Assembly: GCA_004297215.1 (NCBI GenBank)
Contig: SCUM01000001.1
Coordinates: 612,275-676,274, forward strand
Source of the DNA: Patescibacteria group bacterium
GTDB lineage: Bacteria; Patescibacteriota; Patescibacteriia; UBA9934; GWF2-40-263
DNA length: 64,000 nucleotides
Direction: 5' to 3'
Under the pieces are notes generated by a model. That model did no database searches. It saw nothing but the letters and a program-made list of their open reading frames with translations, and was not told the DNA's origin. Position 1 is the first letter of the stretch, and each line of letters opens with the position of its first letter. Shown here in pieces: positions 24,526-53,994 of this stretch. The translations under genes and the position numbers were made by a program.

Positions 24526-26406
24526 TTATTGCCACCGCTTCGTGATCCCGACGTCCGTGTAGAAGTAATGGAGGATCTGCTCCCAGCCCTGGCCGCGGTT
24601 GGCCATGCACAGCGCCTCGGTGGCGCTCATGCCGATGCCGTGGCCCCAGAGCCTGTAGCCTTTTTCCTTGTCGCACGGGCAGGCCACCCCTTTCACCCAC
24701 GGCACGTCGCCGCCCCACACTTCGCCCCAGTCGTACGTCTTCCCGGCCGAGCGGGAGAAGTACGGGGTGATGGCGGTGCGGCCTTCGTAGGTGACCGTGC
24801 GGCCGCGCGTTTCCTCGACGCTCGCGACGATGCGCGGCGAGGCGGCCTCCTGGTCGTAGCCGCGATACACCTGGTCGTCGGCGTAGCCGGTGATGTGGAA
24901 GAACTCGGGCCCGCGCTTGGTGCCGCGCTCGAAGTGGTAGGTGGCATACGTGCGCGCCGCGGTGATGAGCGCCTTCTGGTATTCCATGTGACTGACGTTG
25001 CTCGTCTCGCCCAGCCCCTTGAGGTACCACTCCATCGGCAGCTCGTTGATGAGCCAGGCGCGGCTCTTCGTGTCGTTATAATGGAGCTCGAGCACGTTGC
25101 GGTAGCGGTTATACGGGCGGTCGGCCCCACGGTTGCGACGGTCCCAGTTCTCGACCGTGCAGATGCCGTTTGGCTCGTCCGGGACGAAGCGCAGGAAGGC
25201 CGGCGTCTTCTCGAACCCGTTGCCGCGGTCGAACCAGTAGCGGCTCTGCTTATAGAGCGCGGTGACCGCCTTGCGCGCCGGAAGCTCGGCGAGCAGCGAC
25301 CCGTCGCCGCCCATCAGCTTCCAGGAGGTCTCGCAGCTCACCTTCACCTGGTTGTCCGTCTCGCCGTCCACGATGAGGATGCCCACGCGCAGCATGGGCT
25401 CTTGCATGTCGAAACGCTCCGAGGGCGAGGGGGCCGGCAGGTCGTCGCGCATCGGGGAATTGAACGCGTCCGGAGCGTTTTGGGTGACTTCCACCGGGAT
25501 GTCCACCGTGAAATCCGGCACCACCTGCTCGTCCACGGCAAGCGCGTATTTCACCGTGTGGGCGCCCTGCGCCTTCGGGGCGTTGAACGTGAATTCGAAA
25601 TACTCGAGCCCGCCCGGCGCCACGTCGGTCCCGACGTTCGCGACCAGCACGGACGAGGAAAGCCAGCTGCGGTGCTGCGTCTCGTTGCGGACGCTCGCGA
25701 TCGCGAAATCCGGCGTGCGTAATTCGCGCTTGCGCCAGACAGCCGTGCCGGTGTTCTTGATCCCGACCTTGTACGCGACCGGATCCCCGCCCTTCGCGAC
25801 GACCTTCTTCTGTGAGCGGATGAGGGTGAGGGCGGAGAGGCCCGTGGGGGGCTGGGTGATTGAGGTTGTTGAGGTGGGAGAGGTCTGGACTGGGGGCTGG
25901 GGGCTGGGGGCTTTTGCCGGCTCGGCCACGACGATGTTGACCGTAAACAGGCCGCCTGGAATCCAGGCGACATCTTCTGCGGCCAGGTTGAAGGTCTCGG
26001 CATACGTGCCAACGGCCTTCGGGGCCTTCAGGTTGAACGAAATGGTACCCGTCTCTCCTGCGCGAGCCGCCTGCTCCTTCATCACGGCCGGTTGGATGGG
26101 ATTTTTCCACGAGGCATCCTGGAAAATGCTCGTGCGGTACTTCGGTCCGTACGTGTACACCGACACGTAGGCCGGACCGGAGTTGGCCCAAGCCGCCGTG
26201 CCGATATTCTTGAAGGAAATGGTGTATGCCTTGGTCTCCCCGGGCGCCATCACGAGCTTGCCGGAACCGGAACTGGAGATTTGCAGCGCCTCGTACCCCT
26301 TGAGCGGGGCGGCAAGCACGGAGGCCGGAGCTGCAAGAAGCACGAACGCCGCCACGAGCATGGCGGCGACGATCCGATGGGGTTTTCGCAAAGAAATTCC
26401 CTCCAT
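24526..26406 (-). CDS. SpoIID/LytB-domain protein with two N-terminal Ig-like repeat domains
   Basis: Signal peptide. Two ~110-aa repeats (TISFKNIGTAAWANSGPAYVSVYTYGP / YKVGIKNTGTAVWRKRELRTPDFAIASV). C-terminal SpoIID/LytB region (LHYNDTKSRAWLINELPMEWYLKGLGE...TYEGRTAITPYFSRSAG). Confidence 0.7.
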   Translation of the reverse strand: MEGISLRKPHRIVAAMLVAAFVLLAAPASVLAAPLKGYEALQISSSGSGKLVMAPGETKAYTISFKNIGTAAWANSGPAYVSVYTYGPKYRTSIFQDASWKNPIQPAVMKEQAARAGETGTISFNLKAPKAVGTYAETFNLAAEDVAWIPGGLFTVNIVVAEPAKAPSPQPPVQTSPTSTTSITQPPTGLSALTLIRSQKKVVAKGGDPVAYKVGIKNTGTAVWRKRELRTPDFAIASVRNETQHRSWLSSSVLVANVGTDVAPGGLEYFEFTFNAPKAQGAHTVKYALAVDEQVVPDFTVDIPVEVTQNAPDAFNSPMRDDLPAPSPSERFDMQEPMLRVGILIVDGETDNQVKVSCETSWKLMGGDGSLLAELPARKAVTALYKQSRYWFDRGNGFEKTPAFLRFVPDEPNGICTVENWDRRNRGADRPYNRYRNVLELHYNDTKSRAWLINELPMEWYLKGLGETSNVSHMEYQKALITAARTYATYHFERGTKRGPEFFHITGYADDQVYRGYDQEAASPRIVASVEETRGRTVTYEGRTAITPYFSRSAGKTYDWGEVWGGDVPWVKGVACPCDKEKGYRLWGHGIGMSATEALCMANRGQGWEQILHYFYTDVGITKRWQ

Positions 26407-26475
26407 AATTCGCCACTATCGTATCCGTTTTCCACGCTTCCGTCAACGACGGTTCATGCTACTATACCCGCGCAT

Positions 26476-27909
26476 ATGCCGACGGGTCACGGGCTCAGCA
26501 AAAATTTCGCTCTCCAGGCGGCCGGCAAGGCCGTTTCGGTCGTTTTGGGGCTCGTGATGATCGGGATCCTCACCCGCGCGCTCGGGCCGGAGGGCTATGG
26601 GGCGTTCACCACCGCTTCCACCTATTTGCAGTTTTTCGGGGTCATCGTGGATTTCGGGTTGACCCTCACGCTCCTTGTAATGATCTCCGAGAGCGGCGCG
26701 GATGAGGCCAAGGTCGCCGGCAACGTGCTCGGGCTACGGCTGTTCTCGGCCGCCATCCTGTTCGCGCTCGCCCCGCTCATCGCCCTCCCCATCCCGTGGG
26801 ACGCCACCGTGAAGGCGGCGATCGCCGTGGGCGCGCTCGCCTATTTCTTCATGGCCGGTTCGACGATGCTTGTCGGGGTGTACCAGAAGCATTCGGTAAT
26901 CTGGCGCGCATCGATCGCGGAAGTGGCGAGCCGCGTGGTGCTCGTGGCGCTCACGGCCCTGCTCGCCTGGTTGGGTGCCGGACTCACGGCCATGTTCGCT
27001 GCGCTCGTCATCGCGAACGTGCTGTGGCTCGCGCTTTCCATCGGCCTTGCGCGGCCGTTCGTGCGCCTGCGCCCGCTCATGGACCTCGCCGTGTGGAAAT
27101 CCACGCTCGCGCGCAGCTGGCCCATCGCGCTTTCCATCCTGTTCAACCTGGTGTATCTGAAGGGCGACGTGCTCATCCTCTCGCTCATCCGCAGCCAGGA
27201 AGAAGTGGGTTTCTACGGGGTCGCCTATCGCTTTCTCGACGTGTTCACGGCCGTCCCCACCATGTTCATGGGACTCCTGCTCCCCTCCTTGGTCACGGAC
27301 TGGACCGCCGGACGTCGGGAGGAATTCGGCCGTCACGTGAATCGGACGTTCGACCTGTTCGCGCTCGCCATCGCCCCGATGGCGGCCGGCGGCATCGCCA
27401 TCGCCCCTTCGCTCATCGCGCTGGTGGCCGGATCCGGCTTCGATGCGGCCGCGCCGGCGCTTGCCGTTCTCATGCTCGCCACGCCGGGCATCTTCCTGGG
27501 CGCCCTGTACGGCCATGCGGTCGTCGGGATCGGCAAACAACGCGCCATGGTATGGGGCTATGCCGCCACGGCCGCCCTCACGACGATCGCCTACCTCTAC
27601 CTGATCCCGCGCTGGGGGATCCTCGGCGCCGCCTGGGCAACCGTCGTCTCGGAAACGTTCATGCTCGCGCTCACCTTTTGGATGGTGATGCGCACGAGCG
27701 GCGCGCGTCCACGCCTTGTCGTTGCGACGAAAGCGGTCGCCGCGTCCATGGCCATGTATGCGTTGTTGAAATGGCTCCCGCCCATGGGAGCGCTCCCGTC
27801 CATCGCCGTGGGTGCCGCAAGCTACGCCGTCTTGGCCCTCGCGCTGCGCGCCGTGACGCTCGCGGACCTGCGCGCGCTCATCCCGCACCGATCGCCCGAC
27901 CTGCGCTGA
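26476..27909 (+). CDS. polysaccharide/O-unit flippase (Wzx-like MOP/MATE superfamily)
   Basis: About 477 aa with 12-14 TM helices. ISESGADEAKVAGNVLGLRL and SWPIALSILFNLVYLKGDVLILS regions typical of the oligosaccharide flippase family. ATG at 26476. Confidence 0.7.
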   Translation: MPTGHGLSKNFALQAAGKAVSVVLGLVMIGILTRALGPEGYGAFTTASTYLQFFGVIVDFGLTLTLLVMISESGADEAKVAGNVLGLRLFSAAILFALAPLIALPIPWDATVKAAIAVGALAYFFMAGSTMLVGVYQKHSVIWRASIAEVASRVVLVALTALLAWLGAGLTAMFAALVIANVLWLALSIGLARPFVRLRPLMDLAVWKSTLARSWPIALSILFNLVYLKGDVLILSLIRSQEEVGFYGVAYRFLDVFTAVPTMFMGLLLPSLVTDWTAGRREEFGRHVNRTFDLFALAIAPMAAGGIAIAPSLIALVAGSGFDAAAPALAVLMLATPGIFLGALYGHAVVGIGKQRAMVWGYAATAALTTIAYLYLIPRWGILGAAWATVVSETFMLALTFWMVMRTSGARPRLVVATKAVAASMAMYALLKWLPPMGALPSIAVGAASYAVLALALRAVTLADLRALIPHRSPDLR

Positions 27910-27912
27910 CGT

Positions 27913-29181
27913 ATGTATTTCCTCCTTCTCGGAGCGGCCTGCGGCTTGTTCGCCTTCGTCGCCTGGCGCGACCTGAAAGGCGGCGTCCTGCTGCTCGTCG
28001 CCGCGCTTCCCGCGTACCTGCTGCGCATCCAGGTCGGACCTGTCCCGTCGACGCTGCTCGAGCTTCTCTTCGGACTCTTGTTCGTCGTGTTCGCCCTTAC
28101 GCGACGTGACCTGGTGCGCGCCTGGCTCGTCGAGCGTCGCGCCTGGCAATCGTGGTACGTCCCATTGGCGCTCCTCATCCTCGCCGCCGGCGTAGGCATG
28201 GCCGCGTCGCCCGTGATGCTGTCCGCGCTGGGGCTGCTCAAGGCATACGTCATCGAACCCATCCTCCTGTTCCTCATCGTGCGCGACCTGTTCGTGACGG
28301 AAACCGACAGGATGCGCCTCCTCCAAGCCCTCGCCGTCGGCGGCGCGTTCGCGGCGCTCGTCGGCATCGCGCAATACGCGCTTAACGCCGGCATCCCCGC
28401 GCCTTGGGACATCGAGCGACGCGTGACCGGCCCGTTCCCCTACCCGAACGCGCTCGGGCTGTATCTTGCTCCAATCATCACGATCGCTGGGGTGTTCCTT
28501 CTATCTGTCTTTGCGAGGAGGCCTCAGCCGACGAAGCAATCTCCCGTCACGATATGGTTCTGGTCCGTCATTCTCCTACTTTGCTCTGTCGCCATCTTCC
28601 TTTCGCAAACCGAAGCGGCATGGGTAAGCATCCCGCCAGTCCTGTTCCTGGCCGCCCTGCGCGAAAAGCGCTTGCGTGTTCCGACACTAAGTGTCGGCGC
28701 GGCCTTGATGTTATTGGTTTTCGCCATCCCGGCCGGCCGACACTTCGTGTCGACCAAGCTCCTGCTCCAAGACGCTTCCGGCCAGGTGCGCATCGCCCAG
28801 TGGCAGGAGACCATCGCGTTCTTGAAGGACGGGCATTGGCTGCTTGGCGCCGGGCTCGCGGGCTATCCGGGCGCCATCGAGCCGTATCACACGCATCCGG
28901 AGTATGAGATCTTCCAGGATCCGCACAACGTGATCCTCAACGTCTGGGTCGAGCTCGGCCTGCTCGGACTCATCGGCACTGCCCTGCTCGCATGGCAGGT
29001 CGTCCGGACCCCCAAGCGCGACTGGGTGGCGCTCGCCGCGTCGTTCGCCTTGCTGCAGATGCTCATCCACGGCCTGGTGGACGTCCCGTTCTTCAAGAAC
29101 GACCTCGCGATGATGACCTTCGTCTTGCTCGCGCTCGTTGCCGCGCAAAAGAAAATGCGCTCGGAGGATCCGGGCGCGTGA
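27913..29181 (+). CDS. O-antigen ligase/polymerase-like (Wzy_C domain) membrane protein
   Basis: Polytopic; periplasmic loop with QTEAAW...HNVILNVWVELGLLG (O-antigen ligase signature region). Confidence 0.65.
   Translation: MYFLLLGAACGLFAFVAWRDLKGGVLLLVAALPAYLLRIQVGPVPSTLLELLFGLLFVVFALTRRDLVRAWLVERRAWQSWYVPLALLILAAGVGMAASPVMLSALGLLKAYVIEPILLFLIVRDLFVTETDRMRLLQALAVGGAFAALVGIAQYALNAGIPAPWDIERRVTGPFPYPNALGLYLAPIITIAGVFLLSVFARRPQPTKQSPVTIWFWSVILLLCSVAIFLSQTEAAWVSIPPVLFLAALREKRLRVPTLSVGAALMLLVFAIPAGRHFVSTKLLLQDASGQVRIAQWQETIAFLKDGHWLLGAGLAGYPGAIEPYHTHPEYEIFQDPHNVILNVWVELGLLGLIGTALLAWQVVRTPKRDWVALAASFALLQMLIHGLVDVPFFKNDLAMMTFVLLALVAAQKKMRSEDPGA
28504..28543 (-). repeat. 40-bp repeat, copy B (inverted), inside O-antigen ligase CDS
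   Basis: Reverse complement GAGATTGCTTCGTCGGCTGAGGCCTCCTCGCAAAGACAGA; 39/40 identical to copy A. Confidence 0.8.
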
Positions 29182-32234: not shown

Positions 32235-32330
32235 GGGGTAGTGCGTAGAGGGATGATTGATTGCGGTTTTAGACGTAATACGCAAGAATTCCACCTACGC
32301 ACTACGAACTACCAACTACGCACTCTATGA
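32221..32330. repeat. REP-like imperfect inverted repeat with GTAGTGCGTAG core (family copy 2)
   Basis: TAGTGCGTAGGACGTAGGGGGTAGTGCGTAGAGGG ...(40 nt)... CCACCTACGCACTACGAACTACCAACTACGCACTC. Overlaps the stop of the upstream gene and ends at the galU ATG. Confidence 0.55.
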
Positions 32331-33190
32331 TCCGCAAAGCGATCATCCCTGTCGCCGGCATGGGAACCAGATTCCTCCCCGCTTCCAAGGCGCAACCGAA
32401 GGAGATGCTTGCCGTGGTCGACAAGCCGGTCATCCAGTACATCGTCGAAGAAGCCGTCGCGAGCGGGATCGAGGAGATCATCTTCGTCACCTCCATCGGG
32501 AAGCGCGCCATCGAAGACCATTTTGACCGCAACTTCGAGCTCGAATATCGCTTGGAACAGAAGAAGAAGATGAAGGAACTCTCCCTCGTCGGGGCGATCG
32601 GCAAACTGGCCAAATTCGCCTTCGTGCGCCAGACGAAACCCCTGGGCGACGGGCATGCGGTACTCGCGGCGCTCCCCTTCATCGACCGGCACGAGCCGGT
32701 GGCGGTGCTGTTCGGCGACGACATCATCGACGGCAAGGTCCCGGCGCTCAAGCAGTTGCTTGAGGTGTACGAAAAATATCAGGACCCGGTGGTGGCCTTG
32801 CAACAGGTTCCGAAAAAGGACGTGTCGAGCTACGGGGTGATTGGCGGGAAGAAGATCAATAAGGCCACCTGGGAGGTGAAGACCTTCGTCGAGAAGCCGG
32901 CCGTGAAGGACGCGCCGAGCAACAACATCGTGATCGGCCGGTACGTGCTCACGCCCGACGTGCTTGCCGTGCTCGAGGACCAGCGCGCCGGCAAGGATGG
33001 GGAGATCCGCCTCGCCGACGCCTTCGCCACCTATCTGCAATCCGGCCGACCCATCTACGGCCACCTGTTCGAGGGCACCCGATACGACTGCGGCAACAAG
33101 CTCGGGTTCCTGAAGGCGCAGATAGAATTGGGACTGAAACATCCGGAAGTCGGGAAGGAGCTGAGGAAGTACCTGCGCGCCGTCCGTTAG
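32327..33190 (+). CDS. galU: UTP--glucose-1-phosphate uridylyltransferase
   Basis: KAIIPVAGMGTRFLPASKAQPKEMLAVVDKPVIQYIVEEA and VEKP motifs. 287 aa. Confidence 0.85.
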   Translation: MIRKAIIPVAGMGTRFLPASKAQPKEMLAVVDKPVIQYIVEEAVASGIEEIIFVTSIGKRAIEDHFDRNFELEYRLEQKKKMKELSLVGAIGKLAKFAFVRQTKPLGDGHAVLAALPFIDRHEPVAVLFGDDIIDGKVPALKQLLEVYEKYQDPVVALQQVPKKDVSSYGVIGGKKINKATWEVKTFVEKPAVKDAPSNNIVIGRYVLTPDVLAVLEDQRAGKDGEIRLADAFATYLQSGRPIYGHLFEGTRYDCGNKLGFLKAQIELGLKHPEVGKELRKYLRAVR

Positions 33191-33250: not shown

Positions 33251-34633
33251 ATGACATTCTCCAAACGCTCGATTGCCGGCGCGCTCCTGACCGCGCTCGT
33301 CCTCACCGGCCAAGGCTGCGGCGGCCCCAGCGCGGCCGAAGTGGCGGCAACGAAGCCCGTCACCCTCACCGTGTGGCGCGTGTTCGACACGGCGAACACC
33401 ATGCGTGACATCATGGACGCGTACACGAAGGTGCATACGAACGTGTCGTTCAAGTACGTGCAGCTGCGTCCCGAGGAATACCGGGACGAGCTCCTGCGAG
33501 CGTTCGCCGAAGGCAAGGGTCCGGACATCTTCTCGGTGCACAACGACGGCATGGGCGAATTCAAGAGCCTCATGGCCCCGCTGCCGGCAACCCTCAAGAT
33601 CCCCTATACGACCGTGACCGGCTCCGTCAAGAAGGAAAAGGTGACGGTCATCCGCGAGGATCCCACCATCACCCCGCGCGAGGTGCGCCGCGACTTCCTC
33701 GACGTGGTGGCGGGCGACGTCGTGCTCCCGTTCCAGGCCACGCAGAACGCCCCCACCGAAGAAAAGGTGTACGGCCTCCCGCTCTTCGTGGACACCATGG
33801 CGCTGTACGTGAACCGTGACCTCTTGAACGCGGCCGGCATCGCGGAGCCGCCCGTCACGTGGGACGAGTTCCAGGCCGCCGTGATGAAGCTCACCAAGGT
33901 GGGCCCGAACAACGAGATCATCCAGTCCGGCGCCGCGCTGGGCACCGGGGCCAACGTGGAGCGCGCGTTCGACATCCTGTCGGTGCTCATGATGCAAAAC
34001 GGCACCCAGATGACGGATTCCCGCGGAAACCCGACCTTCGGCTCCTACGAGACTCCCGCGCACACGAATCCCGGGCAGGACGCCGTGCGCTTTTACACCG
34101 ATTTCGCCAATCCCACCAAGGAGGTGTACGGCTGGAACGCGCAGCAACCCAACTCCTTCGACGCGTTCGTGGCGGGAAAGACCGCGTTCTTCTTCGGCTA
34201 CGCCTACCACCTCCCACGCATCCGCGCCCGCGCGCCCAAGATGAACGTCGAGGTGAGCCCCATGCCGCAGATCAAGGACAGCCGCGCGGTGAACATGGCC
34301 AACTACTGGATCGAGACCGTGTCAAAGGCGAGCAAGAACCAGAACTTCGCCTGGGACTTCGTGCAGTTCGCCGCCTCGGCCGAACAGGTGCCGAGCTACT
34401 TGAAGGCCGCCGCAAGGCCCACGGCGCGGCGCGCCCTCATCCAGTCCCAGGTGAACGACGAGGACCTCGCGGTGTTCGTGGGGCAGCTTCTCACGGCCAA
34501 GGATTGGTACCGCGGGGCGGACGCCGCGACGGCCGAGGCCGCCTTTGAGAAGCTGATCGACGACGTGCTCGCCGGCATGGACGTGGAAGACGCCATAAAG
34601 TCCGCCCAGAACCGCGTGATCCAAACCTTATGA
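33251..34633 (+). CDS. ABC transporter substrate-binding lipoprotein (family 1, sugar-type), orphan
   Basis: Lipobox LTGQGCGG. Typical SBP_bac_1 length (460 aa). No permease or ATPase genes adjacent. Confidence 0.7.
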   Translation: MTFSKRSIAGALLTALVLTGQGCGGPSAAEVAATKPVTLTVWRVFDTANTMRDIMDAYTKVHTNVSFKYVQLRPEEYRDELLRAFAEGKGPDIFSVHNDGMGEFKSLMAPLPATLKIPYTTVTGSVKKEKVTVIREDPTITPREVRRDFLDVVAGDVVLPFQATQNAPTEEKVYGLPLFVDTMALYVNRDLLNAAGIAEPPVTWDEFQAAVMKLTKVGPNNEIIQSGAALGTGANVERAFDILSVLMMQNGTQMTDSRGNPTFGSYETPAHTNPGQDAVRFYTDFANPTKEVYGWNAQQPNSFDAFVAGKTAFFFGYAYHLPRIRARAPKMNVEVSPMPQIKDSRAVNMANYWIETVSKASKNQNFAWDFVQFAASAEQVPSYLKAAARPTARRALIQSQVNDEDLAVFVGQLLTAKDWYRGADAATAEAAFEKLIDDVLAGMDVEDAIKSAQNRVIQTL

Positions 34634-35211
34634 GCGCCATCTGCAACGGGGCGTCCTGCACGGTCGCGGAGGTCGGCAGGTTCATGGCCGGCATCAGCAA
34701 GGCGTGCGGCAATGAGGGCAACTGCCAGCTGCCGGACATCATGCAGGTGATCGTGAACATCGGGAATTTCGTACTCGGACTCGTGGGCGCGGTCGTGTTC
34801 CTCATGTACGTCATCGGCGGGTTCTGGTTCATCTTCGCGCACGGCAACATGGAATACGTGAAGAAGGGAAAGACCATGATGACGACCGCCACCGTCGGAT
34901 TGTTCATCGTGTTCTTCGCCTTTGCGGGGATCCAGACCTTGAAGAGCGTGCTCTCAGGCACGACCGCGGTACAGAAAGGCGGCAAGTACGTCCTGTGCAC
35001 AGGGACGGCGACCGAAGACCAGGCCTGCGCCCTCAACAGCACCTGCAAGGGGTTCGTATGCACGAGCACCTGCGATGCCGACCACCCCAACGGCGATTTC
35101 CTATGCGCAGACAAGAACGATCCGTTCACCGCGCAGCGGATCACGAGCGAATGCGAACCCAAAAAATGCCCTGGAGGCGATGCGGTGCAGTGTTGCAGAC
35201 TGAAGAAATGA
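34630..35211 (+). CDS. pilin-like small membrane protein P1 (TrbC/VirB2-type T4SS-pilin-like TM hairpin, C-terminal 12-Cys domain)
   Basis: Core GLVGAVVFLMYVIGGFWFIFAHGNMEYVKKGKTMMTTATVGLFIVFFAFAGI is shared with the four downstream paralogs. The start overlaps the SBP stop (ATGA). Confidence 0.5.
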   Translation: MSAICNGASCTVAEVGRFMAGISKACGNEGNCQLPDIMQVIVNIGNFVLGLVGAVVFLMYVIGGFWFIFAHGNMEYVKKGKTMMTTATVGLFIVFFAFAGIQTLKSVLSGTTAVQKGGKYVLCTGTATEDQACALNSTCKGFVCTSTCDADHPNGDFLCADKNDPFTAQRITSECEPKKCPGGDAVQCCRLKK

Positions 35212-35741
35212 TTCCTCTTCCTATGAACCGCCTTACTCTCATCCTTACGTCACTCGCCCTCTCGGCCAGCCTTCTCCCGACGCCCGTGTCGGCGCAAGCC
35301 GGACCCCAGACGTGCGTGGACTCCTGCATAACGCTGTGCGCGACGGATCCTGACAGTCCAGACTGTCCGGATCCTCCCAATGAGGAAGGGTGCAACGCGC
35401 AGTGCGGCATTGCCCCTCCGACCACTCCGCCGGAGACGTCGGTCGGCGCACCAGCTCCGACCCCGCCTCCTGCCGACGTCCCCCGCACCCTCCAGAATCC
35501 GCTCGGCACCTCCGACCTGCGCCAGGTCATCGGCAACATCGTGCGGGCGCTCCTGGGATTTGCAGGGGCCGGGGCCTTGCTCATGTTCGTGTGGGGAGGG
35601 TTCCAGTTCATGATGGCCGCCGGGAACCCGAAGAACGTGGAGAAGGGCAAGCTGACGCTGATTTGGGCCACCGTAGGACTTGTGGTAATATTCTCGGCAT
35701 ACACCCTGCTCGACACCCTTATCAAGGCCCTGTCGGGATAG
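35208..35741 (+). CDS. pilin-like protein P2 (signal peptide, N-terminal Cys-rich and Pro-rich region, C-terminal pilin-like TM hairpin)
   Basis: GFAGAGALLMFVWGGFQFMMAAGNPKNVEKGKLTLIWATVGLVVIFSAYTLL. The start overlaps the P1 stop. Confidence 0.5.
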   Translation: MIPLPMNRLTLILTSLALSASLLPTPVSAQAGPQTCVDSCITLCATDPDSPDCPDPPNEEGCNAQCGIAPPTTPPETSVGAPAPTPPPADVPRTLQNPLGTSDLRQVIGNIVRALLGFAGAGALLMFVWGGFQFMMAAGNPKNVEKGKLTLIWATVGLVVIFSAYTLLDTLIKALSG

Positions 35742-35793
35742 CGTGCTCTAAGCCACATTCATTCCTTAATCCTGTCTCATCAGGAGACGTCAT

Positions 35794-36216
35794 ATGCAGA
35801 AATCGTTCGCAAGGATCGCCGGCAAAGCCGCCGGCATCGCCGCAGCGGCCCAGGGCGCCCTCATCGCCGCGCACGTCAAGGCCCAGGCCCTCACGGGCGA
35901 GGAACTGTTCGGCGGCGCCGGGAGCACCACCGGCGGGACCGATTTCGCGGCCGCCGCAGGCCTCGGCTCCGGCGACCTTACCGACACCATCGCCTCCATC
36001 ATCCGCACGGCGCTCGGATTCCTGGGCGTGGTCGCGGTGGTCATCACCCTGTACGGCGGCTTCCTGTGGATGACATCCGCCGGCAACGACGACAAGGTGA
36101 AGTCCGCCAAGAAGGTGATGATCTCGGGCATCATCGGCCTCGTCATCATCCTCTCCGCCTTTGCCCTCGCGAACTTCGTCATCACCCAGCTCTCCGGCGC
36201 CACGGCCGGGGCCTGA
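35794..36216 (+). CDS. pilin-like protein P3 (signal peptide plus pilin-like TM hairpin)
   Basis: AGGAG RBS. GFLGVVAVVITLYGGFLWMTSAGNDDKVKSAKKVMISGIIGLVIILSAFALANFV. Confidence 0.55.
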   Translation: MQKSFARIAGKAAGIAAAAQGALIAAHVKAQALTGEELFGGAGSTTGGTDFAAAAGLGSGDLTDTIASIIRTALGFLGVVAVVITLYGGFLWMTSAGNDDKVKSAKKVMISGIIGLVIILSAFALANFVITQLSGATAGA

Positions 36217-36302
36217 TCCTTTCCCCATTCCCCCTCCAAAGCCCCGCAAGGGCGAAGGAGGGGTCATGGCTCGAGCTCCGACCGCCGGTCGAGGCTCGCG
36301 CT

Positions 36303-36797
36303 ATGGCAACCCAGGCTTCGGACCTGATCTCAGGCGGACTGAATAAGGCGGCGGGCACGGCTGGATTCGGTACCGTTGCTGCCAGCGCACCTTCCAACCT
36401 TGGGGTTCTCATCGGCAAGCTCCTTTCCGCGGTGCTCGGCATCCTGGGCCTCGCGCTCGTCGTCTTGCTCATCTACGGCGGCATCCTGTATCTTACGGCT
36501 GCGGGGAACGAGGAGAACGTGAAGAAAGCCAAGCGCACCATCATGAACGCCGTCATAGGCATCGTGATCGTCGCCTCCTCTTACGCCCTCGCGAGTTTCG
36601 TGGTTTCACAGCTGCAGCGTGCGGGGAGAGAAGAGATCGAACTCACTTCCCAGGAGCTTGCCGAGATTTGTGCGCTGGATCCGACCAGCTCTGCGTGCCC
36701 GCAGGGCGCTGGTACGTCAGGAAGCGGAACCTCTGGTGGAGGTGGTACCCCATGTCCTCCGGGTCAGACCTTCGTGAATGGAGCATGTAGCTTCTAA
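36303..36797 (+). CDS. pilin-like protein P4 (pilin-like hairpin plus C-terminal Cys/Gly-rich tail)
   Basis: GILGLALVVLLIYGGILYLTAAGNEENVKKAKRTIMNAVIGIVIVASSYALASFV. Start uncertain: a strong SD/ATG at 36266 lies in another frame. Confidence 0.45.
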   Translation: MATQASDLISGGLNKAAGTAGFGTVAASAPSNLGVLIGKLLSAVLGILGLALVVLLIYGGILYLTAAGNEENVKKAKRTIMNAVIGIVIVASSYALASFVVSQLQRAGREEIELTSQELAEICALDPTSSACPQGAGTSGSGTSGGGGTPCPPGQTFVNGACSF

Positions 36798-36821
36798 AAA
36801 CAATTGGTTCATAACGACCAT

Positions 36822-37205
36822 ATGAAACGTCTTTCTCTCAAGCTTTCCGCCGCCGCGTCGGCCGCTTCCCTCGCGCTCGCCCCGCTCGCCACCCGCGCTG
36901 CCATCACGCTGGACAAAGGACTCGCCGATATCGAAAGCGCCTCGGGCCTCACGGGCGGCGAGGGCGGCCTTCCCGCGCTCATCGGCAACCTCATCAAGGG
37001 GGTGCTCGGGGTGCTGGGCATCATCCTCGTCATCTACCTCGTGTGGGCCGGATTCAAGTGGATGACCGCGGCCGGAGACAGCAAGAAGGTGGATGAGGCG
37101 AAAGCCATGATCCAGAACGCGGTGATCGGCATCGTCATCGTGGTCGCCGCCTACGCCATCGCGAGCTTCGTCATCAAACTGCTCTCGACCGCGGTCGGCG
37201 GCTAG
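36822..37205 (+). CDS. pilin-like protein P5 (signal peptide plus pilin-like TM hairpin)
   Basis: MKRLSLKLSAAASAASLALAPLATRA signal. GVLGIILVIYLVWAGFKWMTAAGDSKKVDEAKAMIQNAVIGIVIVVAAYAIASFV. Confidence 0.55.
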   Translation: MKRLSLKLSAAASAASLALAPLATRAAITLDKGLADIESASGLTGGEGGLPALIGNLIKGVLGVLGIILVIYLVWAGFKWMTAAGDSKKVDEAKAMIQNAVIGIVIVVAAYAIASFVIKLLSTAVGG

Positions 37206-37306
37206 TCGCGGACACAATCGGAATTCAAAAGCGCCCTTCCCCACGAACCAGGGAGGGCGCTTTGTTTCCAGATTTCGTTGACGCTGGAAACCGCGTCATT
37301 GGCGTT

Positions 37307-37888
37307 TTACGCCGGTCTGCACGTGTGCGGACTGTGCACCACGTGCTGGCTCCGTCCGAACATCTTGTACGTGCACGTCCCGACTCGCTCGGTCTGCGTG
37401 CTGTAGACCGAGTCGTTGATCGGGACGAAGACGAACGTGTCGAACGCCGCCTCGTCGCCGAACTTGAACCGCTTCAGGTCCGCCTGCGTCGTGTGGCCGG
37501 CGTAGACCCTTCCGTCGGGAAGCGTCACGTAGCCATCGAGCAGGCACGTCTGCTCCGTGCCCGGCCGCTTCATCACGCTGTAGCCGACCAGCGTGAGCTC
37601 TCCCCCGCCCTTCGACGGGCAGTAGAGACGCGGCACGTCGTCAGCGACGAACCGGTTGGCGTCCTCCCGCAGGGAAGCGACGCACAGGCCGATGCTCGCG
37701 TGCCCACACTCCGTGGTGGCCATGCGGGCGAGCGCGGGGTTGGCGGGGATGAACGGCATCTCCGTCGGTTGTCCCGGCATCACCACCTGCGGCGGGACGA
37801 AGGTCCCGAACGGGGTAGTACAGGTGCCACAGGCAGTGTTGAGACCGACTGTGATGAGAACGAGGACGACGCTGATGATCTGGTTCAT
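37307..37888 (-). CDS. secreted cysteine-rich protein, unknown function
   Basis: Signal peptide (MNQIISVVLVLITVGLNTA) and more than 8 Cys. 193 aa. Confidence 0.5.
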   Translation of the reverse strand: MNQIISVVLVLITVGLNTACGTCTTPFGTFVPPQVVMPGQPTEMPFIPANPALARMATTECGHASIGLCVASLREDANRFVADDVPRLYCPSKGGGELTLVGYSVMKRPGTEQTCLLDGYVTLPDGRVYAGHTTQADLKRFKFGDEAAFDTFVFVPINDSVYSTQTERVGTCTYKMFGRSQHVVHSPHTCRPA

Positions 37889-37924
37889 GGTGTGCTCCTG
37901 TGTCTGGGTGGGTGTGTGGAACTG

Positions 37925-38506
37925 CTAGTCGTCATCTCCGACCATTTTGGTGAGCGCGTCGACATCGCTGTCGAGCTCCTTGATGGCCGCGCCGTGCTCA
38001 TCGACCGTCTTCTTCAGGTCCGCCGGCGCCGACGTTGCCGCCGTGCCGGGCGAGATCACCTGCGGCGGGGCCGTGGCGGCTCCGAGCAGGGCACAGTCGA
38101 TCGGATCGCTGCACAGGCCACCGCCGTACGCCCCATTGGCGCCAAGGCGGTGCACGCTCTCGTGCTCGTTCTCGGTGCGCGCGAGCAAGGCCGCGTCCTG
38201 GGCCCCCACGGCGTCCGTGGTGACCGTCCGCTGCTTGCCGGCGATGAGCCATTTCAGGCACTTGCCCGCCGTGACGTTTCCCTTGCCGTCGTCGATGCGC
38301 TCGTGCTCGGCGCACCGGTCGGGCACCGGGGCCTTTACGACCTGGCCGGTCTTCTCGTCGACCTTGGACTGATACTCCGGCTCGAAGTCCTCGATCACCA
38401 CCTTGGTATTGGTGGGATGGAAGAACCCTTCGAGGCTGACCGGGGTCGAGCAGCCGGCGAGGGCCGCGACGAACAGGATCACGAACGTGGTTGCGATGTC
38501 GTTCAC
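37925..38506 (-). CDS. predicted lipoprotein, Cys-containing, unknown function
   Basis: GTG start with GAGAG upstream. VILFVAALAGCS lipobox. Acidic C-terminus. Confidence 0.4.
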   Translation of the reverse strand: MNDIATTFVILFVAALAGCSTPVSLEGFFHPTNTKVVIEDFEPEYQSKVDEKTGQVVKAPVPDRCAEHERIDDGKGNVTAGKCLKWLIAGKQRTVTTDAVGAQDAALLARTENEHESVHRLGANGAYGGGLCSDPIDCALLGAATAPPQVISPGTAATSAPADLKKTVDEHGAAIKELDSDVDALTKMVGDDD

Positions 38507-38683
38507 TTGGAACTCTCTTTCTTTGGATTGTGAGGGTGCGAATCCCTCTGGGTGACGGGGTTGAGAAATGGTTTGCTGACCTGCCGTATCTGGAAAAACC
38601 CCAATTCCAGAACGTGTGAATATACCACTTTTTTGGGGTTTTGTCAAGGGGAAGAGGTTGATAAATTGGCTGTAATTAGCAAA

Positions 38684-38790
38684 ATGAAGGATGTAGTATG
38701 AAGAATGTAGGATACAAAAAAGCGCTCGTTTCCGACGCTTTCCATTCATCCTTCATCCTACAGTCTTCATCCTTCATTCTGCTCCCCAAT
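38684..38790. repeat. imperfect inverted repeat (ATGAAGGATGTAG...CTACAGTCTTCATCCTTCAT) with nested central hairpin
   Basis: Arms GAAGGATGTAGTATGAAGAATGTAGGAT and ATCCTTCATCCTACAGTCTTCATCCTTC flank AAAGCGCTCGTTTCCGACGCTTT. Lies in the intergenic region 3' of the giant gene. Confidence 0.5.
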
Positions 38791-38850
38791 AAAAAAAGCT
38801 GGTTGCCATGGGAGTACCCATGACTTCCAGCCTCCGTGTAGCCTCTTCTT

Positions 38851-41800
38851 TCAGCCCGTGCACCCGAGGAGCTTCATCCGCTCCGCCGACAGCCCGTACT
38901 TGGCCGCCTTGGCGCACTTGTCCGTCTTCTTCGGCTTGTCGTTGGAAGCGGTCTTTCCGTGACCGCCGCCTCCGTTGCCGTTGCCATTCGACGCGCCCTT
39001 GTCAGCGACGGTCGTCGGCTTCTTCTCGCCCTTCAGCTCGGCCAGCTCGCCTTGCAGGGCCTTCAGCTCTGCCTTGAGCTTCGTCACGTCAGCCTTTGCT
39101 GCCGTGCCCTGCCTTTCGAACTCTTCCCGCTCGCTGATGGAGATGCCCTTCTGCTTGCTCATCTCCTTCAGCCCTTCTGCTTTCCCCTCTGCGTCGACAA
39201 TTTCGGCCGGGATCGCGAGGATCCGCGCCGAGATCTCCTTGCGCCGGAGGAGCTTGGCCTTCTCCTCGTCCGTCTCCACGCCCGCACGGAGGGCCTCCAC
39301 CTCGCGCTTCTTGTTTGCGAGGTCCTTCATGGACCCGATCTCCGCCGTCGCTTGCTCGGCGAGCGCGTCGGCCGCCGTCACGACCACCGTCGTCACGTCG
39401 GCGCGGACCTTCTTCGCCGCTTCATACCTGTCCTTACTGATCGGCGCGAACGTTGAGAAGTCCGGTGCGGTGTTTCCGCCGAATCCGGGAATGGTTTTGG
39501 TCTTCCCGTCCGGCGTGGTGACCGTCATCTCCGAACCCTTCACGAAGAACGATCCGACCACCGCCGCCGCGAGCACCACCGAGACGCCGGTCACGGGGAT
39601 CCAAGCGAACTTGTGATCCTTGAACCGGTACCAGGCGGCAAACGCCGCCGCCGCGACCACGACCAGGATAGCGACCGCCACCAGGAACGCCGCATTCACC
39701 TGCACGCCGTACCAGAGGCCGCGGAGGACGTCCTGGAGGTGCGTCGACGACTGGTACAGGGTCCAGACGAGCGCCGCCACCACCACCGTCGGGATGAGCC
39801 AGTAGCACAGCAACGCGCTGCGCTTCATAAGCGACACCCAGATCCGGTCGATACTGCTTAGCTTGCTCTCGTCCTCCTTCCCGTCCTCGCCCCTGGCCTT
39901 GCGCAGCACCTGCTCCGCGTTGCTCATCTGCGCCCAGTGCGCCACGTAGAGCCCCATCACGCCCAGGGTGAGCGCAAGCCGCATGCCGAACGGGTACTTG
40001 GCACCCGGGTCCATCCACTCGAGCACCGCCGCGTACGCCGTCCCGATGCCCAGCACGACCAGCCCGAGCATGACCAGGTTGCGGAACTTCGTGATCGTCC
40101 CGGGCGTGTCGTCCTTGTAGTTCAGTCCCTGGTCGGTGCGGTCGAGCATCTCCTGCAGCAAGGTCGCCACCGGAGCGGTGAGGACCACCCCGACGATGCC
40201 CGCGAGCAGAGAGAACGCCGCCCCGACGAATCCGCCACCCATCGCGCCGAGTACCGTCACGACGACGGCCGCGGCGAGCGGGATAGCGTACGCCCAGAGC
40301 ACCTTCGGCACCGCCTCGATGAACCTCCGCGCCCGTCCCTTCTTGGGCGGCGGGGGCGGAGGTGGCGGGGGTTGCACGGCCGACTTCTTGGCCACTTCGA
40401 ACGCCTCGTCATGCGCCTTGCCAATAAGTGCCATGAGGCGTTTGCGGTGGCGCTCGGCCAAGTCGACGGCCTTTTGCAACGCCTGCGGATCCGTGGAAGG
40501 CGGATTCGCGGGCTTCAAACCATCCGCGACGGTCCGCGCCCAGTCGAAGCTGTTGGTGGGGTTCTTCCCCACCTTTGCTTGCGTCTGGCCGATGCGCAGG
40601 CACATGAACGCTTGCTTGCGCAGGCTCTTGATCTTAAACACCGATCCGAGCGCCGCATCGAACGCCGCCTTCGTGTCCTCGCCAGCCTTGGCTTGCGCCT
40701 CGGCAACGGCGAGGAACATCTCCGCCCTCTTCTGCGGATCCTCCTCGGCCCGCGCCTCGAGCGCCGTCGCGAGCGCGCCGGACAGGTCCGGCTTCTCCAC
40801 GACGACCGCCGCCGGCTCCTCATCTTCCTTCTTGAGGAGGCCGCCGACGAAGTTCACCACCGTGACCGCGCCGAGCCCCGCCTTGTTGGCAAGCTCCTGC
40901 CTGCCCTTGGCGAAGGCGCGGATGGCCGCCGTGACGTCGTCGAAGCCCTTGTCAGTGAGCTCGCCGTCGTCGTCGAACACGTCGTTCTCGACCAGGGCCG
41001 CTGCGACTTCGCTCGGGAGGTTCATCACCTCGTCGAGATACCCGTGGCCTTCGATCTGCTTGAACAGATCTGGGCTGCGATGCGCGGCGGAGCCATAGGC
41101 GATGGCGATGGCGATGACGTTGCCGTCGATCTCCTTGCGCTCTCCGGGCTTCGCCTCTCCCTCCGCCGGCGCCGCCGCTTTCTTGGCCTCGTCGGCGATG
41201 CGCCGGGCGACCTCGGGCTCGCAGTGCTTGCACACCGCGCTCCCCCCGATGGCTGCCGCGGCTTTCGCTGAGACGAACCGCAGGTTCTTAGTGAAGTCTT
41301 TCGCGTTCGCCTGCAGGAGGGACCCGACCTCGCACAGGAGGACGGGATCCTTCTTCGAGTCGACGGCGACGTTGCCGTCACCGTCGAGCTGCACGGCGTG
41401 GAACACGCCGTCGAGCGTGATCGCGATCGGCCCTTCGAGCGTCTCCCGCTTCGCCACGACCTTCGTCTTGGCGTCGAGGACGGAGTCTCCCGAGCTCGGC
41501 GTCTCGTTCACGTCCTTGATCGGACGCGCCTTGGCCGCGTCGAGGGCGCTCAGGCCCTCGGACAACGTCTGCAGACTGAACTTCTTGACGAGCTGCGAAA
41601 TGAGCCCTGGTCCGAACTCCTTATCGAGGGGAAGCGCGTAGGCCGCATCCGCGAGCAGGGCCGCAATGACTTCGACCGCCACCTCGAGGCTGGGAAGCTT
41701 CAAGGTGATATCCGTCAGCTTCTTCGTGAGCGGCCCGCCTGAGAGCCCCATCTCCTTCAGGTCCTGCACGAGGTGCGGGAGCTGCTGACGGAACTCCTCG

Positions 41801-41931
41801 CCGAGCTTCTTCGCCCCGACTTTCACGCCGAGGTCGAGCGGCTTCGACAGGTCGGGAAACCACTTCTTCCCGAGGGCTACGTCGAGATCCTTGTTCTGGT
41901 TGCCATCGTTCTGCTTGTTCTTCTTGCCCAT
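38851..41931 (-). CDS. giant (1026 aa) multi-pass membrane protein with coiled-coil C-terminus and poly-Pro tract, unknown function
   Basis: Start ATG 41931 (MGKKNKQNDG). Soluble N-half. PPPPPPPPPP at about aa 500, then a block of at least 7 hydrophobic helices. C-terminal K/E-rich coiled coil ending in CAKAAKYGLSAERMKLLGCTG. Confidence 0.55.
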   Translation of the reverse strand: MGKKNKQNDGNQNKDLDVALGKKWFPDLSKPLDLGVKVGAKKLGEEFRQQLPHLVQDLKEMGLSGGPLTKKLTDITLKLPSLEVAVEVIAALLADAAYALPLDKEFGPGLISQLVKKFSLQTLSEGLSALDAAKARPIKDVNETPSSGDSVLDAKTKVVAKRETLEGPIAITLDGVFHAVQLDGDGNVAVDSKKDPVLLCEVGSLLQANAKDFTKNLRFVSAKAAAAIGGSAVCKHCEPEVARRIADEAKKAAAPAEGEAKPGERKEIDGNVIAIAIAYGSAAHRSPDLFKQIEGHGYLDEVMNLPSEVAAALVENDVFDDDGELTDKGFDDVTAAIRAFAKGRQELANKAGLGAVTVVNFVGGLLKKEDEEPAAVVVEKPDLSGALATALEARAEEDPQKRAEMFLAVAEAQAKAGEDTKAAFDAALGSVFKIKSLRKQAFMCLRIGQTQAKVGKNPTNSFDWARTVADGLKPANPPSTDPQALQKAVDLAERHRKRLMALIGKAHDEAFEVAKKSAVQPPPPPPPPPKKGRARRFIEAVPKVLWAYAIPLAAAVVVTVLGAMGGGFVGAAFSLLAGIVGVVLTAPVATLLQEMLDRTDQGLNYKDDTPGTITKFRNLVMLGLVVLGIGTAYAAVLEWMDPGAKYPFGMRLALTLGVMGLYVAHWAQMSNAEQVLRKARGEDGKEDESKLSSIDRIWVSLMKRSALLCYWLIPTVVVAALVWTLYQSSTHLQDVLRGLWYGVQVNAAFLVAVAILVVVAAAAFAAWYRFKDHKFAWIPVTGVSVVLAAAVVGSFFVKGSEMTVTTPDGKTKTIPGFGGNTAPDFSTFAPISKDRYEAAKKVRADVTTVVVTAADALAEQATAEIGSMKDLANKKREVEALRAGVETDEEKAKLLRRKEISARILAIPAEIVDAEGKAEGLKEMSKQKGISISEREEFERQGTAAKADVTKLKAELKALQGELAELKGEKKPTTVADKGASNGNGNGGGGHGKTASNDKPKKTDKCAKAAKYGLSAERMKLLGCTG

Positions 41932-42069
41932 TGGACACTCTCGCTTTCTTCTTTTTGTGCGGGAGGGGACCCCCGCTAGATTTTCAAAGGAGACGCGACC
42001 GGAACCCGGTACGCGATCTCTCCTAACGGGATACTCCCACTCATAAATCCCGCACGGAAAAGACCCTCC

Positions 42070-42098
42070 TATATACGCGAAAAACACCCTTTTGTCAA
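42070..42098 (-). promoter_or_regulatory. strong sigma70-type promoter for the giant gene (minus strand TTGACA-17-TATATA)
   Basis: Consensus -35, 17-bp spacer and an A/T -10, about 140 nt upstream of the ATG at 41931. Confidence 0.5.
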
Positions 42099-51108: not shown

Positions 51109-52245
51109 TTACTGTTTGATCGGCATCACGATATAGAGGTAGCCGGTCCCTTCTGATGGGGAAATGACACAAGGGTTGCCACCGTCGATCATCTTGAACG
51201 ACACCCTATCGCCACCCATCGCGTTGAGGCCGTCGAGAAGGTAACGGTAGTTCACCGTGACGTTGTTGTCGGAGCCGGTCGCCTCCGCCCCGCACTCGGC
51301 CGTATTGTCGCCGCGCGCGGCATCAGTCGCCTTCACCCGAAGTTTCTTTTCGTTCACGTCGAATTCAAGCGTCACGTCGAAAAGGCCCGTCCGCGAGAAG
51401 AGGCTTGCGGTCTTCACCGCTTTCACCATGTCGTCACGATCCAGCAAGGATTGCGTTTGGAACGATTTGGGAATGATCTGCCGATAATCCGGATAATGTC
51501 CCTCAATGAGGCGGGAAACGAGCTCAACCGTCCCGTAATCGAATGCCGCTTGGTTGTCGGAAAGCTTGAGGGAGATTTCCGCTGGGGAATCCACCTCGTC
51601 CTTGAACACGGATAGTATTCGGTTCACTTCGGAAAGGGTCCTTGCGGGAATGATGACCGTCTCCTCCGTTTCGACGGATCCCGCCGGGAGAGGGACGACG
51701 GCTTCCGCAAGACGGTATGAGTCGGTGGCCGCAAGCGTCATGGTCGAGTTTGTCCCGCTGTTGCCGAAACGGATGCACACCCCGGCAAGCTCGGGCCTGG
51801 ACTCGTTCGTGGCCACCGCGAACAAAACTTGGGAGAGGGCCGAGCGGAACGAGGCGACGGGGATGCGATACGAACGACTCGCCGTGACCTCTGGAACGAG
51901 CGGAAATTCCGAAGCGGGGAGTCCGTTCATCCGTGTCTTGTTTCCTGCGCATGAGACGGACATGCTCGTCCCCGCCTCCTCCACCGTCACGGTCTCGTTC
52001 GGAAGGAGGGATACGTAATCGAAGAAGAGCTTGGAGGGGACGGTAAACTCCCCTGGAACCTCTACCTTGCCACGCACTGAGCACGACACGGCTATTTCCA
52101 AATTCGTCGTCGTGAACCGTATCGCCCCGCCGTCCGCTTTCACCAGCACGTTCTGCAGGACGGGTAGGTTCACGTTCTTCGATGTGATGTGACTCGTGAT
52201 GGACAACCCTTGATGCAGGTTCTCCCTAGTACAGGATAATTTCAT
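51109..52245 (-). CDS. dnaN: DNA polymerase III beta sliding clamp
   Basis: MKLSCTRENL start with a GGGGG RBS. Three-domain clamp, 378 aa. Located directly downstream of dnaA. Confidence 0.85.
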   Translation of the reverse strand: MKLSCTRENLHQGLSITSHITSKNVNLPVLQNVLVKADGGAIRFTTTNLEIAVSCSVRGKVEVPGEFTVPSKLFFDYVSLLPNETVTVEEAGTSMSVSCAGNKTRMNGLPASEFPLVPEVTASRSYRIPVASFRSALSQVLFAVATNESRPELAGVCIRFGNSGTNSTMTLAATDSYRLAEAVVPLPAGSVETEETVIIPARTLSEVNRILSVFKDEVDSPAEISLKLSDNQAAFDYGTVELVSRLIEGHYPDYRQIIPKSFQTQSLLDRDDMVKAVKTASLFSRTGLFDVTLEFDVNEKKLRVKATDAARGDNTAECGAEATGSDNNVTVNYRYLLDGLNAMGGDRVSFKMIDGGNPCVISPSEGTGYLYIVMPIKQ

Positions 52246-52546
52246 ATCGATTCCCCCCTTCCTTGTCACCCCGTTATCTATTATTAGATAGATAGAGTAT
52301 GAGACTCACGAAGATAGTAAGGGGTGTGGACGGGGTGGATAGATAAGGAATAGGCTTAATATTCGCGAAAAAACAGTTGTAAGGAATGTGCATGGACCAC
52401 CCCTTTGTCTTGAGGATGATCGGAGGATGGAAGATGAGATGGAATTCCCTTTCCGATCATCCCCCTTTTCCCCACACGCGCGTCCGCAAGGCATCTCACC
52501 CTCTATCCTCCGGTTATCGACTTGTGGATAGAGGTGGATAAGCTGT
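52246..52546. promoter_or_regulatory. oriC-like dnaA-dnaN intergenic region with DnaA boxes and A/T-rich element
   Basis: TGTGGATAG (52523-52531), GTGGATAAG (52534-52542), TTATCGAC and GGTGGATAGATAAGG (about 52333). A/T-rich TTATCTATTATTAGATAGATAGAG element at about 52275. Confidence 0.5.
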
Positions 52547-53944: not shown

Positions 53945-53994
53945 ACCATCAACGGGACATTCCTCCTTAAATCCATTGAGTGACAGGTAGTGTA

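Follow-up and report, generated by a model that had tools for sequence, protein, structure and literature searches.

The locus described here raises the question of whether an array of pilin-like genes depends on any type IV secretion system (T4SS). This array comprises five adjacent genes, P1 to P5, in a 64,000-nucleotide stretch (hereafter the window; contig SCUM01000001.1, positions 612,275 to 676,274) of a metagenome-assembled genome (MAG) labeled "Patescibacteria group bacterium" (GCA_004297215.1). Patescibacteria are a huge and mostly uncultured group whose members are attached to other microbes, and how they exploit their hosts is an open question, for which T4SSs and pilin arrays, essential in one species tested, are the leading candidates. 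We favor, with a rough probability of 0.58, the reading that P1 to P5 are pilin subunits of a patescibacterial T4SS, polymerized by a VirB4 machine encoded elsewhere, with a solute-binding protein (SBP) encoded directly upstream as glycan partner. Its support comes from what could be observed directly: the family to which the proteins belong, their hairpin, a conserved operon, and paralogues that are old and ordered.

All five genes lie on the forward strand: P1 (34630-35211; 193 amino acids [aa]; NCBI TAK04141.1, EPO34_03275), P2 (35208-35741; 177 aa, or 172 aa from an alternative ATG at 35223), P3 (35794-36216; 140 aa, with an AGGAG Shine-Dalgarno sequence upstream), P4 (36303-36797; 164 aa), and P5 (36804-37205; 133 aa from a TTG, or, more likely, 127 aa from the ATG at 36822, beginning MKRLSL...). 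Their GC content at third codon positions (GC3) is 0.85 to 0.91, which marks them as coding. The proteins share a core of about 75 residues, formed of two helices, in which L, G, G, G, G, V, K, G, and L are invariant in a five-way alignment, and any two paralogues are 28 to 48% identical over their aligned stretches (pairwise BLAST, E values of 1e-7 to 1e-24). The preliminary description, made from the sequence alone, had reported five consecutive, same-strand paralogous genes with a conserved core, and both statements hold on the evidence of the open reading frames (ORFs), GC3, alignment, BLAST, and a Pfam family common to all five. The spacer between P3 and P4 has its strongest Shine-Dalgarno sequence (GAAGGAGG; region 36266-36346) in front of an ATG that is out of frame; the 26-codon ORF beginning there overlaps the start of P4 (36303) and may act as a leader or in coupling, or may be a product of chance.

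The paralogues differ in what surrounds the core. P1 has a 4-Cys N-terminal segment, the hairpin, and a 10-Cys C-terminal ectodomain; P2 has a signal peptide followed by an N-terminal extension (6 Cys and Pro-rich), with the hairpin core at its C terminus; and P4 ends in a Gly-rich tail with 4 Cys. P3, the best conserved of the five, has no Cys and a Gly/Ala/Thr-rich N-terminal segment, and P5 has neither Cys nor extension. The Gly/Cys tail of P4 agrees with the preliminary description, whose counts for the other two need correcting, from 12 C-terminal Cys to 14 divided between the two ends of P1 and from 8 to 6 in P2. As read from the sequences and their orthologues, signal peptides are clear in P2 and P5, weaker in P3, and missing from P1 and P4.

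Profile searches assign the five proteins to a family. All exceed the Pfam gathering cut-off of PF18895 (T4SS_pilin; 26.6 bits), with 54.2 bits for P2, 51.2 for P4, 45.6 for P5, 37.5 for P3, and a bare 27.6 for P1, whose orthologue family also carries PF18895. PF04956 (TrbC/VirB2; cut-off, 27.9 bits) is matched above threshold by P2 (29.6) and below it by P5 (20.1) and P4 (16.9), with no match in P1 or P3, and the NCBIfam model NF045849 (pilin-like conjugal transfer protein; cut-off, 40) is exceeded by P3 (44.8), P4 (48.5), and P5 (41.6) and missed by P2 (31.1) and P1 (11.9). Because the context of an integrative and conjugative element (ICE) is lacking, P3 to P5 are relatives of NF045849 rather than equivalogs. 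A search with a profile of the core returned 1487 homologues at an E value of ≤1e-5; of the 120 listed, nearly all have PF18895, and many are named Uhrbacteria. None of P1 to P5 matches the N-terminal methylation motif of type IV pilins (PF07963), a motif confined to other genes, upstream of some Magasanikbacteria-type loci. At the level of sequence profiles, then, P1 to P5 are confirmed as VirB2-like pilin-family (PF18895) proteins, as the suggested resemblance to T4SS_pilin and TrbC/VirB2 had implied; the wider resemblance proposed to the pilins of Gram-positive T4SSs does not hold in general, VirB2-like pilins being typical of Patescibacteria and of diderm systems (PMC12857230).

The two-helix hairpin predicted in the preliminary description is recovered with confidence for the core (predicted local distance difference test [pLDDT], >90). 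An AlphaFold2 model of P5 built from 125 sequences has helices at residues 49 to 81 and 87 to 126 (pLDDT of about 93 to 96) separated by a five-residue turn, and hydropathy gives two transmembrane (TM)-like segments in each of the five proteins; in P1, whose model is moderately confident and matches nothing in the PDB, the hairpin spans residues 47 to 101 or so. The loop of P1, P2, P4, and P5 contains 3 or 4 Lys/Arg, and the Cys all fall to the N- or C-terminal side of the hairpin, none in the loop. From hydropathy, the basic loop, the placement of Cys, and the signal peptides of P1 orthologues, we infer that both termini are outside the cell and that the Lys-rich loop is in the cytoplasm. Fold searches returned generic helical hairpins from which this one could not be separated, so that family membership is drawn from the hidden Markov models (HMMs). 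A PDB search with the pilin profile found no solved structure, its only matches being "Pizza" designer proteins, which we discarded as spurious.

That fold searches cannot tell this hairpin from others leaves room for the proteins to be unrelated small membrane proteins (holins, bacteriocin immunity proteins, or transporter subunits served by the SBP) that resemble pilins in hydrophobicity, and some homologues are indeed automatically named "TRAP-type transporter small permease subunit" or "YwzB." Only pilin families, however, score above threshold: no holin, immunity, or permease family in Pfam or NCBIfam does so for any of P1 to P5. In the window, genes for an ABC permease or ATPase are lacking, as is any phage or bacteriocin context, and the Cys-rich termini imply exposure outside the cell. 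We regard this explanation, which the preliminary description had itself raised for holins and immunity proteins, as very improbable.

The Cys-rich termini are best defined in P1. Across its orthologues (n = 12; 40 to 78% identity), C5, C10, C26, and C32 are nearly invariant, and 8 of the C-terminal Cys are invariant. In more distant orthologues, a signal peptide runs up to the very point at which P1 starts, which places the Cys-rich N terminus of P1 outside the cell; P1 and its three closest homologues begin MS.IC... at the predicted cleavage point of these distant orthologues (..ALAA before it, SSIC.. after it). The subclade of P1 in the window has lost the signal peptide and kept its 4-Cys extracytoplasmic N-tail. 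Searching 1.84 billion cluster representatives with the C-terminal domain yielded nine matches at an E value of ≤0.001, of which the six credible ones are all PF18895-type pilins (P0002, a P1 orthologue, and five scanned proteins), suggesting that this disulfide-rich domain is rare and occurs only on pilins of this family. Matches to proteins with FIVAR, DUF7507, and PatG_C were judged to be compositional or repeat artefacts.

The pilin genes do not stand alone. Directly upstream is the gene for a carbohydrate (CUT1/MalE-like) solute-binding lipoprotein (33251-34633, forward strand; TAK04140.1; SBP_bac_1, 1.6e-25; SBP_bac_8, 2.3e-21), the SBP introduced above, whose best PDB relatives are sugar and oligosaccharide binding proteins and whose N terminus, MTFSKRSIAGALLTALVLTGQGC, reads as lipoprotein-signal-like. 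As noted earlier from the sequence, ATGA overlaps join the SBP stop to the P1 start and the P1 stop to the P2 start. Before the SBP gene, a galU-like gene for UTP-glucose-1-phosphate uridylyltransferase (NTP_transferase; 32327-33190, forward strand; PF00483, E value of 2.8e-31) is the first of a conserved GalU-SBP-pilin block. Beyond P5, in the interval before a convergent gene that ends at 37307, a GC-rich 13-bp hairpin (37228-37267) flanked by an A-tract and UUUGUUU is a likely, possibly bidirectional, intrinsic terminator; its RNA fold has a free energy of -31.3 kcal/mol (z = -4.0 versus shuffles), and a simple consensus terminator scan did not list it. Promoter scanning produced hits no more frequent than in shuffled sequence.

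To place this block among its relatives, we assembled related loci from look-ups of P1 orthologues, a GTDB scan with an alignment of P3 orthologues (80 loci, a set that this query biases toward the class ABY1), and HMM searches of their ORFs. In 57 loci, the first pilin gene is immediately preceded by an SBP orthologue, which only three arrays with readable upstream sequence lack; the gap between the two genes is -4 nucleotides (nt) in 20 loci and 1 to 6 nt in most of the rest. In 48 of 82 pilin loci, the SBP gene in turn follows a galU-like gene. Since the next commonest flanking family occurs in only 16 loci, the linkage of SBP to pilins exceeds general synteny. It also holds in reverse: three distant SBP orthologues (55 to 57% identity, on long contigs) are all followed by a P1-like gene and 4 or 5 pilins, and all three have a galU orthologue upstream. 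The single operon with the SBP gene proposed in the preliminary description is therefore real and conserved across relatives, and the pilins are cotranscribed with SBP, and probably with galU, in one unit ending at the hairpin terminator.

This linkage, far above that of any other neighbor and found from both sides, together with the stronger conservation of SBP orthologues (55 to 68% identity) than of the pilins, is also what would be expected if the proteins formed a T4SS-independent envelope module, such as a host-glycan attachment or capture complex, in which the hairpins act as membrane anchors or oligomerizing stalks that display Cys-rich and low-complexity ectodomains in company with the SBP, with no polymerization by VirB4. 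We hold this to be possible, although clearly less probable than a T4SS pilin, as no system is known in which an ABC-type SBP works with two-TM hairpins and as the family is strongly tied to VirB4 loci across Patescibacteria (1135 assemblies).

Comparison across loci also bears on the age of the paralogues. Uhrbacteria-type loci have a fixed order of SBP, a P1 type (usually with 12 to 14 Cys), and P2, P3, P4, and P5 types, and the order P1-P2-P3-P4-P5 is kept in some twenty of them. Each pilin of the window is closer to its positional orthologue elsewhere than to its own neighbors, with identities of 41 to 67% for P1, 61% for the P2 core, 60 to 75% for P3 (60% in loci L002 and L004, 75% in L006), up to 49% for P4, and 40% for P5. 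Because paralogues correspond by position across genomes, the duplications are old and the copies specialized. The extensions of P2 and P4 are specific to the lineage: the P2 core is 61% identical to an orthologue without extension (L2_p2), another orthologue (L4_p2) has a different one, and two P4 orthologues (L4_p4, 49%; L2_p4, 34%) lack both signal peptide and tail. Elsewhere, P4/P5-type copies have expanded to give 9 genes in L004, and Magasanikbacteria-type loci have 8 to 12 pilins, many with Cys-rich ectodomains.

These patterns speak to whether the genes form an antigenic or host-range repertoire, that is, five interchangeable and fast-diversifying major pilins of one pilus, as proposed for the VirB2 paralogues of Bartonella and Anaplasma. 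Such a role has been suggested for patescibacterial arrays (PMC12102498), and the low identity among paralogues, the lineage-specific extensions of P2 and P4, and the copy expansion in L004 would suit it. Against it, the copies retain their order in some twenty loci and resemble positional orthologues more than neighbors; long DNA repeats or cassettes of near identity are missing from the five genes (the best short repeats, at 68 to 81% identity, reach 62 nt), and all belong to one operon with no sign of switching elements. We consider a repertoire of this kind improbable. The earlier suggestion of diversified, exposed extensions on a common anchor or polymerizing module fits the data in its general form, although the diversification is not recent, the Cys domain of P1 is conserved, and only the extensions of P2 and P4 are lineage specific.

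Separate from the arrays, six ABY1 loci (L030, L034, L053, L067, L070, and L083) encode giant proteins of 2,191 to at least 3,462 aa with 74 to 163 Cys (for example, L070:9881-20269 and L030:6675-16685), whose residues at about 50 to 130 are the T4SS_pilin hairpin; each is preceded by a gene for a protein of 610 to 880 aa with the same N-terminal module. Judging from this arrangement, the hairpin evidently serves as an anchor for very large ectodomains as well.

Whether a VirB4 machine is available to the array is the point on which the favored reading is most exposed, and several observations weigh against that reading. As the preliminary description had stated for VirB4 and VirD4, Pfam scans of 45 ORFs in the window, including every plausible ORF of at least 500 aa, detected no VirB4, VirD4, VirB6, VirB3, or relaxase. 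Nor is there a VirB4-like gene within 10 kb of some 85 related loci, a Walker-A screen of all of their flanks finding other ATPases only. Giant hairpin-headed proteins of 2000 to 3400 aa cannot make up the bulk of a pilus. The VirB2 of Agrobacterium, from an annotated Ti plasmid, aligns in register with the pilin profile in hhalign, if weakly (probability of 6%, E value of 0.006), and the generic results of the fold searches add nothing specific to a pilin. We know of no pilus built of PF18895 proteins that has been observed experimentally. Among the available entries of Table S1 of a phylum-wide survey (PMC12102498), VirB4 is scored "No" for the closest relative, GCA_001791045.1 (862,982 bp, versus the 842-kb contig here), for two array-bearing Uhrbacteria (L009 and L010), and for a further Uhrbacteria genome with one such pilin (P0029). 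In the same entries, 18 of the 36 Uhrbacteria listed are VirB4 positive, versus 2,417 of 3,035 genomes (about 80%) phylum-wide.

The absence of VirB4 from the neighborhood of every such array, the negative scores of the closest relative and several array-bearing Uhrbacteria, and the use of the same core as N-terminal anchor of giant Cys-rich proteins all favor the envelope module independent of T4SSs. On the other hand, "No" entries can be explained by MAG incompleteness or VirB4 divergence, and two array-bearing genomes (L061 and L064) are scored "Yes" among the available Table S1 entries (PMC12102498). Given that the relatives are draft MAGs and that the window is 64 kb of an 842-kb contig, lack of VirB4 in this genome is a real possibility rather than a result. 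In the survey itself, which screened 3,035 Patescibacteria genomes for PF18895 and PF04956, VirB2-like pilins were found in 1,948 VirB4-positive assemblies, with a pilin gene near virB4 in 1,135 (Quinonero-Coronel et al. 2025, PMC12102498); pilins were counted only in VirB4-positive assemblies.

If P1 to P5 are T4SS pilins, as we favor, P2, P3, and P5 would be inserted into the cytoplasmic membrane by Sec and processed by signal peptidase, and P1 and P4 would enter by N-tail insertion, leaving the loop cytoplasmic and both termini outside. An MPF-FATA-type T4SS (VirB4, VirB3/PrgI, VirB6, and TrsD), its genes being elsewhere on the chromosome, would then pull the subunits out and stack them into a filament resembling a pilus or a tube across the envelope. 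The loop of known VirB2/TraA pili faces the lumen, with the termini pointing outward. Should that arrangement apply here, P3, perhaps with P5, as the plain and best conserved proteins, would be the bulk subunit, and P1, with its conserved disulfide-rich domain from both termini, and P2 and P4, whose Cys-containing extensions are lineage specific, would serve as minor or decorating subunits in contact with the surface of the host cell. At the base of the structure, the SBP lipoprotein would bind a glycan derived from the host or the envelope.

A bolder proposal, which we put forward tentatively and consider unlikely on present evidence, is that in Uhrbacteria and Magasanikbacteria (ABY1), the SBP and the ordered hairpin proteins, some with disulfide-rich ectodomains, constitute a self-standing, VirB4-free envelope organelle, the pilin module having been exapted to serve as a surface anchor or stalk in recognizing host glycans or capturing nutrients. 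If so, the label "T4SS pilin" would be misleading for the ABY1 branch of the family. More generally, a VirB4-independent array would mean that the pilin module has become separated from the secretion machine, pointing to surface recognition.

The array occupies ordinary chromosome. The source contig is 842,311 bp long, with a GC content of 62 to 63% in the sequence analyzed; the closest GTDB species representative is Candidatus Uhrbacteria RIFCSPHIGHO2_01_FULL_63_20 (P3, 75% identical), placed, like Uhrbacteria generally, in class ABY1 (Table S1, PMC12102498). Around the array, the window contains 23S and 5S rRNA, seven tRNA genes, dnaA, dnaN, PBP1, trigger factor, H+-pyrophosphatase, RuvB, IscS/NifU, and others. 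We rejected a mobile-element origin for the array in view of these housekeeping neighbors and the conserved synteny. The dnaN/dnaA genes (51109-54010) are about 14 kb from the pilins, and lower-GC stretches flank them (52 to 54 kb and 56 to 58 kb), so that a replication origin is likely nearby; this matches the published placement of patescibacterial T4SS genes, which are often near dnaA (PMC12102498).

Several neighboring features merit mention. Upstream of galU, genes for a Wzx-type flippase (Polysacc_synt) and a member of the Wzy_C/O-antigen-ligase family (26092-29181) are syntenic with galU-SBP-pilins in several Uhrbacteria. The Wzy_C/O-antigen-ligase family includes pilin O-oligosaccharyltransferases, and glycosylation of the Ser/Thr/Gly-rich pilin N termini is conceivable. 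Downstream, three convergent genes on the reverse strand (37307-42087), without Pfam matches, encode two Cys-containing, lipoprotein-like proteins of 193 aa each and a 1026-aa polytopic, coiled-coil protein. All Uhrbacteria loci have a positional analogue of this set (two or three small proteins and one of 690 to 840 aa); sequence similarity extends only to the closest relative (32%) and is lost elsewhere. Every large protein of these sets ends at its C terminus in a C-x(11-17)-C loop, e.g., DKCAKAAKYGLSAERMKLLGC. We dropped the idea that the three genes are hidden T4SS parts, there being no Pfam matches and conservation only to the closest relative. Farther upstream, in the region 8158-13086, the 23S and 5S rRNA genes have no adjoining 16S gene, the expected site holding a SPOUT methyltransferase gene (12004-12477, forward strand) and a weak tRNA-Ala (13009-13086); the 23S gene, at 3,084 nt versus a 2,925-nt model, may carry an insertion. 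A 1082-aa ORF with two Lamin Tail Domains (13186-16434) overlaps an opposite-strand tRNA-Leu gene (13856-13942), and as its 5' part lacks a coding GC3 signal, its true start is probably farther downstream.

Set against known systems, the proteins resemble the VirB2/TrbC/TraA pilins of diderms in having a signal peptide, two hydrophobic helices, and a short basic loop, and P2 passes PF04956; they differ in that the similarity is marginal for four of the five, there is no adjacent virB3 or virB4, the host has no outer membrane, and large Cys- or Pro-rich terminal extensions are present. Classical pilins, once mature, have about 70 residues, and some are cyclized. The VirB2 paralogues of Bartonella and Anaplasma phagocytophilum likewise occur as several divergent copies side by side, and surface variation has been proposed as their role; those copies, however, sit in or beside the virB operons of intracellular pathogens, whereas the paralogues here are ancient, ordered, and in an operon with SBP. 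The Mbov_0395 family of Mycoplasma ICEs (NF045849) is similar in comprising two-helix, 80-residue proteins from a wall-less monoderm, with P3 to P5 above its cut-off, but it is encoded by one gene within a mobile conjugative element, and the window offers no ICE, relaxase, or VirB4 context.

The closest parallels are within Patescibacteria, where a tandem VirB2-like array is an already published kind of feature; the preliminary description's alternative that this might be something new is overtaken by reports of 2023 to 2025 (PMC10633639, PMC12102498). The survey counted 441 arrays of 2 to 11 pilin genes in 383 assemblies, most abundantly in Microgenomatia and Saccharimonadia, with a mean identity of 25% and a maximum of 54% (PMC12102498). 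In Southlakia epibionticum, a series of predicted pilins inside a T4SS cluster is essential for epibiotic growth (Wang et al. 2023, PMC10633639), and a 2025 review treats the possible pilus of monoderm Patescibacteria as an open question (PMC12857230). Our five adjacent genes fit the definition of an array (at least two tandem pilin genes, or with one non-pilin gene between them), and their 28 to 48% identity fits the published divergence. Like the arrays of that survey, the six-pilin array of S. epibionticum ML1, and the "Sec secreted array" of Nanosynbacter lyticus TM7x, they are tandem, same-strand genes of low identity with the same PF18895/PF04956 domains, on the chromosome near dnaA of a monoderm, ultra-small host. 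In the literature searched, we found no mention of an SBP-led five-pilin operon, a disulfide-rich P1, or a possible lack of VirB4 in this lineage. What comparison adds is the absence of VirB4 near the loci, the old and ordered paralogues, the disulfide-rich termini of P1, and the conserved GalU-SBP-pilin operon. The locus leaves the general picture unchanged and offers a clean, conserved variant of it, in a lineage in which half of the genomes are without detectable VirB4, with the disulfide-rich P1 and the SBP as concrete targets for binding studies. Unlike the published arrays, it lies away from a T4SS cluster, is led by a translationally coupled gene for a sugar-binding lipoprotein, and, in class ABY1, keeps a fixed order of five orthologous types that includes the disulfide-rich P1.

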